From IMG/VR virus record IMGVR_UViG_2522572023_000002: 46,993 bases of DNA. One strand, given 5' to 3'. The position numbers are program-made. Below are positions 3,001-6,000 of the stretch, piece by piece. The first letter of the stretch is position 1. Each line of letters begins with the position of its first letter. This DNA is from a virus (lineage: Duplodnaviria > Heunggongvirae > Uroviricota > Caudoviricetes).

Positions 3001-6000
3001 TGCGGTAAGTCCGTGTATGTTCCGTTTTTGCGGGCAAGATATTCTTCTTTCGTGATTTCAGTAGCCCCGGCAGCCAGCGCCTTGTCCAGACCAGAAAGTT
3101 TGTTTGCGCGACCGTATTTTTCGCCATCCTTGTCGGTGAAGAGGAAGTAGAACGGCCCCTCACGCTCTACAGATGGTTCGACTTCCACTTTGCATTCGGT
3201 TTTTTCGTTGTCCGGAATTGCCGTTTCCACTGCATCAGTTTCTGGTACTGGCGACGAGAGAGTATCAGTTGCGCTCTGATTTCTTCCTTCATCTTCAAAC
3301 ACGCCCTTTGTAGTCAGGTATTCAGTAATGTATTTGTTCAGTGCCACAGGGTCTTTGTGAATGTCGATCGGACGTTCACGGACAAGGCCAAAAATAGTCT
3401 GGCGGCTGTAGCGAAGCGCATCAGGTTGTTTGCGCATTGATGCGGAGATGCGCTTCCAGTCTTCGCGATCTCTGGCGATAACTTCATTTTTAGCCCAGCG
3501 AAGGATGCTGCCGTCAATGTTTCCGGCATCCGCATCACCAGGCCAGAGATAGTAGGCCAGCTCCCTGTCCAGGGTTTTCCATGTCTGCTTGTATTCGCGA
3601 TGAATGGCGGCAGTTACAGGAGGGATTTTTTCTGCTGGGTTTTCAGTGTGCTGTCGGTTGGCTTTGGCGCGGGCAAGATCAACAACAGACGTGTATTTTC
3701 CAGTCTCTTTGCGCTCTGCGTCCTGCCGTTTTTTCCAGTTACGTAATTCAGCCTGAATTTCGGGCCATTTGGTACCCGGCTTACATTTGTGTTTAACCCA
3801 TCCGATAGCGAACAGTTTGCGTTCCGGATACATAGCGTTAATTTCAGGCGTTTTCATCAGTGCTTCAACGATATGCCCGTCAAAGGTAGCCACGTCTTCT
3901 TGCAGTAATTCCTGCGCGTCAATCGCCATATCAACGGTGATGTTTTCACATGTACCGAACTTAACCAGGACCGCGTTCTGTACTTCAAGGGACAGCTTGT
4001 CAAAATTGACGTTAATAGGATCGGATTCTGGTTCGACCGGAATAAAGGAAGCGGATTCCTCATCCCAGCGGTTTTCCTGCATATATTCGGTATCCCAGGA
4101 GTCGATAGCAGGGCGGGGCATGCCGGGTTTATCTTCGCAGACAAGAAATTTATAAGCGCAGTCCTGAGCAGCAGGATATTGCTCCAGGAATTGCCAGGTA
4201 AATTTGGCACGGGCGCGGCGTTCATCACCGGCTTCAATGGCAGTGGCTACAGCAACTGCGCCCTCTTCTTTTATTGCCTGTTCGTCCGGAATGGCGGCGC
4301 AAATAAAGACTTTACTCATTTTGTTTTAACCTCATTACAGATTTAAGGGTGAACAAATCCCTGCCATTGCTGGCATATAAAAATGAAACCGGATATTAAT
4401 TACGGTGCTGTTTTAAAGTCCTGCCGGTATTTCGTTATTATTAGTGTGAGTAGTTTTATCTACCGGATAACAGTTACCGGGAATTTTTTGTTCTGCTGCT
4501 GCAGCCATGCATTCTTTCATTGAACCGTATAAGCCAGTCACCAGCTCAAGAGATTCGCCGGAAACAAGATAAACTGTCAGAACGAGTGCAAATGTTGTAT
4601 TCATTGTTTATATCCTTTTTGCAGCAGGTCCAGACGAGCCAGCATTGAAGGAATGCATACTTCATTTAACAGGTCCTGCTCGAGTTTTCTCTGCTTAATG
4701 GCGTCTTCAATAAATGTTTTGTCTCCAGTGATAACGCCAATTTCGAAACGAAGTTCAGACGTGCTGGCATTACATGATAACTTTTCCATTATCGCGTCCT
4801 CAACAATGAATTTTGTGATGCGGTGCCTGGTGCCTCCAGGTGACGTTAACCAGTTAACAATTAACGCCGGATACAGAGAATCCACCCATAACACTGTTTT
4901 TGGTTTTAACTGTTCCGCGTGCGCTGAGCCGCATTCACCGCATCACAAAATTCACTTTTAAAAAAGGGCGGCAGAGCAGTTACGGAGTAAAACTGATACC
5001 GCCAAATGTCACCAGAATATTGATAACAGAGGGCGTTGTAGCGGGGTTGTCACTTAAGCGTATGGTCAACCTGACAACCCGGTGTCCTCAACTGGGGAAG
5101 GAATAACCCCGCCATACTTACCGCCGCGCCATTTCGCGGATTGCCACAACCGGAAGCGCACGTTCGAAGAAATCTAACGACAAGCCTTCTAAGGGAAAGA
5201 GCTTCGCCGTACGCTTTCGCGTTGTGTGCCTGCTTTTAACCACGTCAGGCGAGGTGGTTTCCGTCGTTCCCCAACGACAGGAAATCTGTATAATCTGGAT
5301 ATCCCCAACAACAGGAAGGTGTTTTATATGGTGGTTCAAAAGAATTGTTCAGGTACTGGTAAGCCTGCGGACAGGTCGGACATTCCGAATACCAGGAAAC
5401 ATATACCTGAGAAAAACATTCGACCAAAACCATCTCCAGCTCCTTCAGAGGAGAGGGGGAACAGCAACAATCAAACAAGCAGGTGATGATATATGGACCG
5501 GGATGATATTCTTGACAGGGTTTTATATGGTTATTTTCTTGAACAACTATTCTCTGTAGCGACTGGTCGTCTCGATAAACTTCTCTCAGTGGTGAGTATT
5601 ATCCTCGGTTTATCTGTCATTGGTGGATTTATTCCTGAAGTTTCTGGAGTTCTCATTGTTGTGATAGCAACCGTTCAAACGATTTACGGATTCGGACAAA
5701 AGTCAGGTAACGCAATGAGAAAATCCGCAGAATATCTGCAGCTTTATGATGATGCAGAAAAATATTCCGATTCGGAATTGAAAATGCAGTTAAAGCTCCT
5801 GGAAAAAACAGATGATAATATTTGGTCGTCGCTTAAAGATATCGCAATCTTAAAAAACCAGATCAAAATAGGAATCTCCGTAGAACAACAAGAGAAACTG
5901 TCTGCAAAATCCAAATTGATGCGATTCCTTTGTGGTTAGGAATACCCAGATTGTTAAAGAGCATGCCGGATGCTTACCCGTGTCCGGCGAACGTATTCCA

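Follow-up and report, generated by a model that had tools for sequence, protein, structure and literature searches.

A probable dicBF segment in the early-left operon of a lambdoid prophage of Escherichia coli O145:H28

Does a prophage whose immunity region is unrelated to that of the K-12 prophage Qin carry a genuine dicF-dicB-ydfD operon segment controlled by its own repressor? This question is raised by a stretch of 46,993 nucleotides (nt) of a virus of the Caudoviricetes (IMG/VR record IMGVR_UViG_2522572023_000002), hereafter the window, i.e. the whole stretch of DNA that was analysed. A first-pass annotation had placed at 4413-5018 a Qin-like module made of a DicF-like small RNA (sRNA) followed by dicB- and ydfD-like genes on the same strand, and had assigned it to the early-left operon, with an expression depending on the immunity state. 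The analysis presented here indicates that this locus is very probably a bona fide dicBF segment belonging to the operon of the early-left promoter (PL) of a lambdoid prophage that adjoins yccA in Escherichia coli O145:H28, and that it probably works by the mechanism proposed below. The finding is real and already known, as the processing, the regulation and the protein functions have been published, and the occurrence of the dicBF locus in many prophages, including several copies in O157:H7, was described by Balasubramanian et al. (PMC5069750).

The core of the segment comprises the following features:

4966..5018, minus strand: DicF sRNA, 53 nt, with an open 5′ region (nt 1-15) followed by a terminator hairpin, delimited by Rfam and by alignment with K-12
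4960..4965, minus strand: U-run (U6) closing the DicF intrinsic terminator, read from the sequence and taken, as in K-12, to define where the 53-nt RNA ends
4601..4789, minus strand: dicB, 62 amino acids (aa), cell-division inhibitor family, with a ribosome-binding site (RBS) GAGGA at 4797-4801
4413..4604, minus strand: ydfD homologue, 63 aa, Pfam DUF1482 (PF07358)

The limits of the interval 4413-5018 coincide exactly with the stop codon of ydfD and the 5′ end of DicF, and all three elements lie within it, on the minus strand. The Qin-like character first attributed to the module is upheld by the tests against Rfam, Pfam and NCBIfam, all of which were passed, and by the alignment with Qin itself, since the minus strand from 5237 to 3553 is colinear with the K-12 segment going from the 3′ region of ydfC through dicF, dicB and ydfD to ydfE, with 84.7% identity over 1.7 kb. 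The identity of the RNA block 5140-4790, which includes a leader, DicF and the dicF-dicB spacer, reaches 92-100% per 50-nt step, against 72.5% for the dicB coding sequence and 75% for that of ydfD.

The Rfam covariance model RF00039 recognizes a single DicF in the window, at 4966-5017 on the minus strand, over its full length (1-52/52), with a score of 76.9 bits for a gathering score of 48 and an E-value of 2.2e-15 calculated on the whole 47-kb window. The identity with K-12 DicF, first put at about 95%, is 50/53 (94.3%) when 4966-5018 is aligned with the annotated 53-nt dicF of K-12 (NC_000913 1649382-1649434). The three differences are U1A, G12A and G38A. The terminator hairpin (GGCGGUA...UGCCGCC), whose presence had also been announced, is intact in its stem and in its U6 run; in K-12, the U-run terminator is involved in the formation of the DicF 3′ end (PMC5069750, PMC9438474). 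The predicted fold has an energy of -15.5 kcal/mol (z = -2.5), a value equalled by 3 of 200 shuffled sequences. Its minimum free energy structure, which is identical to the centroid, leaves nt 1-15 open and pairs 16-22 with 46-52 and 24-28 with 38-42, followed by U6. K-12 DicF is organized in the same way, its first 15 nt being unpaired and followed by a GC-rich hairpin in two parts and by U6. The G38A change converts a U.G pair of the hairpin into a U-A pair. Globally, at the level of sequence, the model score, the fold, the complementarity to ftsZ detailed below and the location inside an operon within a processing context all identify 4966-5018 as a DicF.

The two proteins encoded downstream belong to the expected families. 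DicB matches the Pfam family PF05358 from end to end (1-62/62, 131.8 bits for a cut-off of 27, E = 7e-39) and NCBIfam NF049927 (123.7 bits for a cut-off of 100), and its RefSeq entry, WP_000413705.1, is annotated as dicB. YdfD matches DUF1482 (69.2 bits for a cut-off of 25, E = 2.8e-19), is 63% identical to the K-12 lysis protein YdfD and retains both of its cysteines; as in K-12, the start of ydfD and the end of dicB share 4 nt (ATGA). The functions of the O145 proteins are probably those of their K-12 counterparts. K-12 YdfD causes a division-dependent lysis through the inhibition of IspG (PMC8835842). K-12 DicB acts via MinC to prevent the formation of the FtsZ ring and thus cell division, and DicB blocks the entry of lambda-type DNA through ManYZ (PMC6832061, as cited in PMC10448788).

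The pairing of DicF with its targets was predicted against the K-12 target regions, as duplexes that take into account neither intramolecular structure nor Hfq. The block of FtsZ synthesis by DicF is a function shown in K-12. The predicted duplex between DicF 24-53 and ftsZ -29..+1 has an energy of -27.9 kcal/mol that is the same for the local and the K-12 alleles, position 38 being located in an internal loop, so that the ftsZ target put forward in the first-pass annotation is supported in silico. The metabolic targets are predicted to behave differently. The K-12 DicF forms with xylR a perfect 13-bp duplex (DicF 5-17 with xylR +8..+20), in which G12A introduces a central A.C mismatch and shifts the predicted energy from -20.3 to -14.5 kcal/mol; 5384 of 5409 E. 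coli genomes carry this xylR site with an identity of 99% or more. In the pykA duplex, G38A removes one pair and the predicted energy goes from -26.4 to -22.0 kcal/mol, whereas the manX duplex prediction is the same for both alleles. The local allele (A1, A12, A38) is therefore predicted to keep the control of ftsZ and to form weaker duplexes with xylR and pykA.

The same prophage carries a gene encoding a PerC-family (Pch-like) regulator (23029-23343, plus strand). The predicted duplex of DicF with the 5′ coding region of this gene reaches -46.7 kcal/mol, compared with -36.3 +/- 3.6 for shuffled DicF, a crude measure of complementarity. The PerC homologue pchA is a published target of DicF that is specific to enterohaemorrhagic E. 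coli (EHEC) (PMC7769764).

These pairings bear on another explanation, according to which the selected role of the locus in EHEC would be a benefit to the host in the lysogenic state or under low-level derepression, through exclusion of ManYZ-dependent phages by DicB and activation of the Pch/PerC virulence regulators by DicF, and not division control or lysis. This would agree with the action of DicB on the entry of lambda-type DNA mentioned above, with the activation of pchA translation by DicF in EHEC, where about four copies per strain are found (PMC7873438, PMC7769764), with the extended complementarity between DicF and the PerC-family gene of the same prophage, and with the fact that A12 and A38 weaken the predicted pairing with metabolic targets and not that with ftsZ. 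However, the PerC-family estimate is crude, the pairing with ftsZ is fully retained, and such roles would add to the dicBF segment proposed here instead of replacing it. A host benefit as the sole selected role thus appears possible but doubtful.

The RNA that surrounds DicF provides a second line of evidence for a functional dicBF segment. In K-12, DicF is excised from the transcript of the promoter dicBp (PMC10448788, PMC5069750, PMC9438474): ribonuclease (RNase) III generates a species of about 190 nt and RNase E the 5′ end of the 53-nt DicF (PMC10448788), while the 3′ end results either from the intrinsic terminator or from an RNase III cut 19 nt further downstream, which leads to a 72-nt species (PMC5069750). 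The corresponding elements of the window are:

5143..5229, minus strand: long imperfect hairpin upstream of DicF, putative RNase III site that would place the 5′ end of the ~190-nt precursor at ~5155
5019..5140, minus strand: conserved leader directly 5′ of DicF, with a putative RNase E cut AAU/AUU between 5019 and 5018
4806..4955, minus strand: structured dicF-dicB spacer with a 20-bp stem and internal hairpins, putative RNase III site for the 3′ end of the 72-nt DicF

The leader is 98-100% identical to that of K-12 (50-nt steps) and 97-100% identical in most IMG/VR loci. The 3′ arm of the upstream hairpin (5229-5143) spans the expected 5′ end of the 190-nt species (~5155), and the fold of the 461-nt precursor is much more stable than those of shuffled sequences (z = -5.1). 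The 20-bp stem of the spacer begins 10 nt past the DicF terminator and extends almost to the RBS of dicB, its 5′ arm being located at 4936-4955 and its 3′ arm at 4806-4825. The cleavage sites are assigned here because the sequence is nearly identical to the K-12 substrate.

The related loci share a common pattern: variation is found in the apex of the hairpin and in the interior of the spacer, and the arms of the stems hardly change. Of the 57 distinct versions of the 5143-5229 hairpin, the 14 most frequent all retain the stem, the apex being variable and the pairs showing changes from G-C to G.U. In the consensus fold of 11 loci, the arms of the 20-bp stem are invariant, except for changes from C-G/G-C to U-G/G-U in two K-12-type loci; in the locus L044, one pair of this stem goes from G-U to G-C and the 3′ arm lacks 7 nt. 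A covariation test of the 20-bp stem was attempted and set aside, as the changes from G-C to G.U are one-sided and neither prove nor disprove the structure.

The spacer also resembles the Rfam family STnc100 (RF02076), with which it shares an outer long stem, internal hairpins and the motif UCACCnGGAGGCACCnGGCACC. As the match (4812-4952, minus strand, model positions 21-154/206, E = 1.4e-6) reaches 37.4 bits for a gathering score of 47, the spacer falls outside the family by the Rfam criterion and is probably a distant relative. The prophage also carries a full-length STnc100 (138 bits; 18196-18386, plus strand), which closely follows three transfer RNA genes in its late region. No link was found between the dicF locus and the 193-nt sRNA-17 (PMC7719688).

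The conservation of this RNA block of about 350 nt could also be due to a recombination hotspot or to a recently spread mosaic and not to a selection on the processing structure. The identity with Qin shifts sharply at ~5140 and 4790, the block is joined to different dicB alleles, spacer interiors and upstream genes, and even to a Kil gene, and the stems are devoid of compensatory changes, all of which would fit with such a mosaic. However, the variation is concentrated in the apices and the spacer interior, with stem arms that are invariant or show only G-C to G.U changes, and the K-12 experiments place the RNase III and RNase E sites in these elements (PMC10448788). Recombination as a substitute for selection is thus rather unlikely, and a mosaic would in any case be compatible with selection on the structure.

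The region between the two processing hairpins displays a diversity of its own. A survey anchored on the conserved flanks (120 IMG/VR matches plus other loci, the window included) recovered 158 instances of this slot, about 141 occupied by DicF and about 17 by other cassettes belonging to at least 8 forms. Among these 158 instances, the recurrent polymorphic positions are 1, 12 and 38; the K-12 type is the commonest (61 of the 158 instances), and the exact type of the window was found 8 times. The alternative cassettes have a differing 5′ region, a GC-rich hairpin and a U-run, whereas the leader and the downstream 20-bp stem are nearly identical. They were found in IMG/VR at the position corresponding to 4960-5040 of the window:

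L032:2745-2825, L039:2752-2832, L043, L044, L046 and L047: loci carrying an alternative cassette in the slot

Seven dicB loci that carry several of the alternative forms gave no DicF match at the Rfam gathering threshold; at a permissive threshold, one form scored 44.1 bits, i.e. less than the gathering score, and another gave no DicF match at E-values up to 1. The ftsZ complementarity of the seven alternative cassettes tested does not exceed that of shuffled sequences. Among 5426 complete E. coli genomes, 195 carry one of these cassettes and 101 another, both of them unannotated. The CA-rich 5′ part of the non-DicF cassettes suggested the EHEC anti-sRNA AgvB, an assignment that was rejected as AgvB lies between the late promoter and lysis genes (PMC7873438). 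It may be proposed, as a tentative idea, that the position of DicF is a swappable sRNA slot located between two conserved processing hairpins, the upstream RNase III stem and the STnc100-like 20-bp stem, and that DicF alleles such as A12/A38 would be re-tuned versions.

Whether the segment answers to the immunity state depends on the region located upstream. The genes follow each other on the minus strand in the order repressor, PaaA2, ParE2-like, terminator hairpin, promoter-like site, ydfA, dicF, dicB, ydfD, exonuclease gene and int. The features involved, apart from those listed above, are:

7498..7512 and 7523..7537: matching operator palindromes, between the repressor gene and the cro-like gene
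6463..7462, minus strand: immunity cassette, with a CI-like repressor (6962-7462), a PaaA2 antitoxin (6753-6944) and a ParE2-like toxin (6463-6753)
6431..6448, minus strand: terminator-like hairpin and T-run, which would end the repressor/PaaA2/ParE transcript just upstream of the PL-like site
6367..6408, minus strand: PL/dicBp-like promoter, with a -35 TTTACA (6395-6390), a spacing of 17 nt and a TG-extended -10 TATTGT (6372-6367)
6038..6190, minus strand: ydfA homologue (DUF1391), first gene of the left operon (Pfam E = 1.6e-28; 86% nt identity to K-12 ydfA)
5238..5965, plus strand: insertion of 728 bp within the left operon with respect to Qin, with an opposite-strand open reading frame (ORF) of 148 aa (5493-5939), delimited by BLAST breakpoints with K-12
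1884..4319, minus strand: exonuclease gene of the same operon, 811 aa (Pfam Rv2179c-like 3′-5′ exoribonuclease, E = 3e-66; phrog_2082)

The repressor harbours an HTH_3 domain (Pfam); its N-terminal domain matches lambda CI (PDB 1lmb, E = 1.6e-9) and its C-terminal part is weakly DicA-like (NCBIfam, E = 4e-7, sub-threshold). No S24 peptidase domain was found in the protein encoded by 6962-7462. Directly downstream of this helix-turn-helix (HTH) regulator and in the same operon lie the genes of a PaaA2-type antitoxin (Pfam E = 2.9e-22) and of a ParE2-type toxin (E = 2.2e-35 with the solved O157 ParE2, PDB 5cw7). The -10 of a candidate promoter for repressor maintenance (PRM-like) ends 8 nt before the ATG of the repressor gene, which suggests a leaderless or nearly leaderless messenger RNA (mRNA).

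Two 15-bp palindromes of the AATAGC-N3-GCTATT type, AATAGCACTGCTATT at 6369-6383 and AATAGTAATGCTATT at 6394-6408, overlap the -10 and the -35 of the PL-like site. Within the 47 kb, the only other palindromes of this type are those at 7498 and 7523, an additional hit with two mismatches at 40267 being non-palindromic. The pattern gives 9 strand-matches for 0.72 expected, a number reached by none of 100 shuffled sequences. To judge from their positions, the pairs located at the PL-like site and in the repressor/cro region correspond to the classical arrangement of left and right operators (OL/OR); the repressor would bind these palindromes and the RNA would be produced from the PL-like site. 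The shared operators, the promoter-like site and the gene order thus bear out, on sequence grounds, the early-left location and the immunity-dependent expression that had been suggested.

On the other side of the repressor, the cro/ydaS-like gene (7570-7834, plus strand) is frameshifted by one extra G (G8 versus G7) in a poly-G tract at ~7686-7693. A near-identical prophage of strain OkiPb01717 encodes an intact HTH protein of 87 aa at this position, where RefSeq annotates no gene in the source genome. The frameshift may correspond to a real inactivation, to a slipped-strand variation or to a sequencing error in the homopolymer.

The comparison with known systems shows that the operon combines parts of two of them. 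As in Qin, where DicA represses dicBp (PMC10448788), ydfA is the first gene and the module is located downstream of, and codirectional with, a non-cleavable CI-type repressor. However, the repressor, the operators and the promoter are not homologous to dicA and dicBp, the homology beginning about 40 nt upstream of ydfA, and the PaaA2/ParE pair is located between the repressor and PL. Furthermore, the counterpart of ydfE is full length. The 811-aa protein carries a C-terminal exoribonuclease domain and the 5′ part of its gene aligns with K-12 ydfE; judged from this alignment, the gene is the full-length, intact form of the truncated Qin pseudogene ydfE.

The immunity region is closer to that of CP-933P/Sp12 from O157:H7, in which PaaR2 and YdaS repress PL933P, downstream of paaR2-paaA2-parE2 (PMC8630535). 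Both prophages share a leftward repressor-PaaA2-ParE2 operon with an operator-bearing PL just downstream, a YdaT (CII-like) gene on the right and a division-inhibitor gene 3′ of the repressor. They differ by the cro/ydaS-like gene, frameshifted here, and by the operators, the published CP-933P repeats having a GTTTAGTAA half-site consensus (PMC8630535), whereas the repeats of the window are of the AATAGC-N3-GCTATT type, two per promoter. The immunity specificity is therefore expected to differ. The DicF copies of EHEC O157:H7 (Sakai, EDL933 and 86-24) correspond to the same DicF, several copies per genome being typical, whereas the integration site, the immunity type and the insert are specific to the O145:H28 lineage and a few relatives.

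Several observations weigh against a dicBF segment that is still expressed from PL and processed as in K-12. The promoter call is a 9/12 match to the consensus, and 6 such matches were found in the region for 5.7 expected, so that the call is credible solely because the operator palindromes overlap it. Unlike in Qin, ydfB and ydfC are missing and replaced by the 728-bp insert. The stretch of about 1.25 kb that separates the end of ydfA from the start of dicB is devoid of any supported minus-strand ORF and contains a convergent gene. Less DicF and dicB RNA could therefore be made from PL, owing to Rho-dependent polarity or to convergent transcription, and no antiterminator resembling N was identified. 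The DicB protein is only 55% identical to the characterized K-12 DicB. No compensatory change was found in the stems among the 11 loci compared; these stems are almost invariant and the pairing is kept without proof by covariation. Finally, the z-score of the whole-DicF/ftsZ duplex is only about -2 relative to shuffled sequences, and the duplex energies include neither intramolecular structure nor Hfq.

The insert itself is seen in a subset of the related loci. The only family matched by its 148-aa ORF is phrog_6315, of unknown function; no hit was obtained in Pfam or NCBIfam and nothing significant with PADLOC (only Csx1, E = 0.0096, taken as noise). The predicted product, a putative membrane protein, has a two-helix hydrophobic core (approximately residues 27-68). 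The ORF is intact in most of the copies that are 86-92% identical, but contains an internal stop in the L034 type and is split in the L019 copy. The inserted gene looks like a moron that is convergent with PL. A 73-aa minus-strand ORF (5118-5339) was rejected as a gene: it matches no family, and the K-12 stretch from ydfC to dicF is noncoding.

These observations would be expected if the locus were a silent relic, in which intact sequences are effectively uncoupled from their promoter and lead to no meaningful output of DicF, DicB or YdfD. The insert and its convergent ORF between ydfA and dicF, the loss of ydfB and ydfC, the splitting of the integrase gene by an element of the IS3 family of insertion sequences (IS), the frameshift in the cro-like gene and the lack of a promoter-like site in a scan of the minus strand between 5018 and ~5400 would favour such a relic, which is nevertheless improbable, as all the elements (DicF, dicB, ydfD and the two processing hairpins) are intact and have 100% identical copies in many strains, the insert-bearing layout recurs in several independent contigs, the insert contains no strong minus-strand intrinsic terminator (two weak hits, a total within chance), and another defective prophage, in K-12, still makes DicF in stationary phase (PMC10448788).

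According to the favoured explanation, a functional dicBF segment of the PL operon, the CI-like repressor would keep the operon off in the lysogen by binding the paired operators over 6395-6367, a step proposed because of the sharing of operators and of the published analogues. Loss of repression would allow the synthesis of a transcript of about 1.4 kb, which would extend from ydfA, through the antisense of the inserted gene, to the DicF terminator. RNase III would then cut the hairpin 5229-5143, RNase E would cut at AAU/AUU (5019/5018) and termination at U6 would free the 53-nt DicF, steps proposed because of the near-identity with the K-12 precursor, for which they were demonstrated. Together with Hfq, DicF would pair through nt 24-53 with the translation initiation region of ftsZ and block FtsZ synthesis. 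Read-through of the terminator followed by an RNase III cut in the 20-bp stem would lead to a dicB-ydfD mRNA; DicB would inhibit division via MinC and block ManYZ-dependent phage DNA entry, and YdfD would lyse the cell through IspG inhibition.

Positions 1-8300 of the window match the chromosomes of E. coli O145:H28 RM12761 and RM13516 at 100% identity, and are covered at 80% or more in 13 genomes only. In the source genome, RefSeq places there a lambdoid prophage of about 46 kb that adjoins yccA. The IS3-family element is located at the left end of the window, with a frameshifting ALIL pseudoknot (1-72) and a transposase ORF (1-888). The remaining part of the prophage integrase gene is found at 928-1596, and this splitting probably makes excision impossible. 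With an IS-disrupted integrase gene and a frameshifted cro-like gene, the prophage looks defective. Farther to the right, the nin-like region includes, as in Qin, a sok antisense RNA (Rfam, 107 bits) and the toxin gene hokD, at 12969-13143 and 13138-13293, respectively, both on the plus strand. The search for a Rem antirepressor, limited to the position next to hokD (13461-13739), revealed no similarity to K-12 Rem. According to RefSeq, sodC is located among the tail genes (39662-40189, minus strand), and a gene encoding an EspF-repeat effector is cut by the right end of the window (46241-46993, minus strand).

The module itself is far more frequent than this prophage. Of 5426 complete E. coli genomes, 4739 contain a match to an 801-bp dicF-ydfD query; the median number of places is 2 per genome, and there are 6 in the O145 source genome, for which the copies located beyond the window are known as a count, one best place being listed per record. 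The DicF type of the window, taken as 76 nt that include DicF and its immediate flanks, has counterparts of at least 99% identity in 324 genomes, among them those of O157:H7, whose chromosomes carry 100% identical copies. An exact-pattern scan of genome contigs matched 2 E. coli records, in a collection that contains one genome per species and with an exact match required. At the locus, RefSeq annotates dicB, and ydfD as a "DUF1482 family protein", and leaves DicF unannotated; among the records listed, none has an annotation under the 76-nt match.

As DicF is unannotated at this locus and at the other places checked, the copy number of this sRNA is under-recorded in the genomes of Shiga toxin-producing E. 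coli. The pairing predictions suggest that the EHEC-type DicF has a narrower range of metabolic targets than the K-12 RNA that has been used for work on targets, which matters for the transfer of conclusions from K-12 to pathogens. Furthermore, the dicBF operon is found here in association with a possibly PaaR2-type repressor in which no peptidase domain was detected and with a distinct operator specificity. With such a repressor and a damaged cro-like gene, induction is probably Qin-like, i.e. through an antirepressor, stress or stochastic events, and not through SOS cleavage. If the tentative idea of a swappable slot holds true, prophages would swap their regulatory seeds at one fixed position of lambdoid PL operons that is competent for processing, and DicF alleles of the A12/A38 type would keep the control of ftsZ while relaxing that of xylR and pykA.

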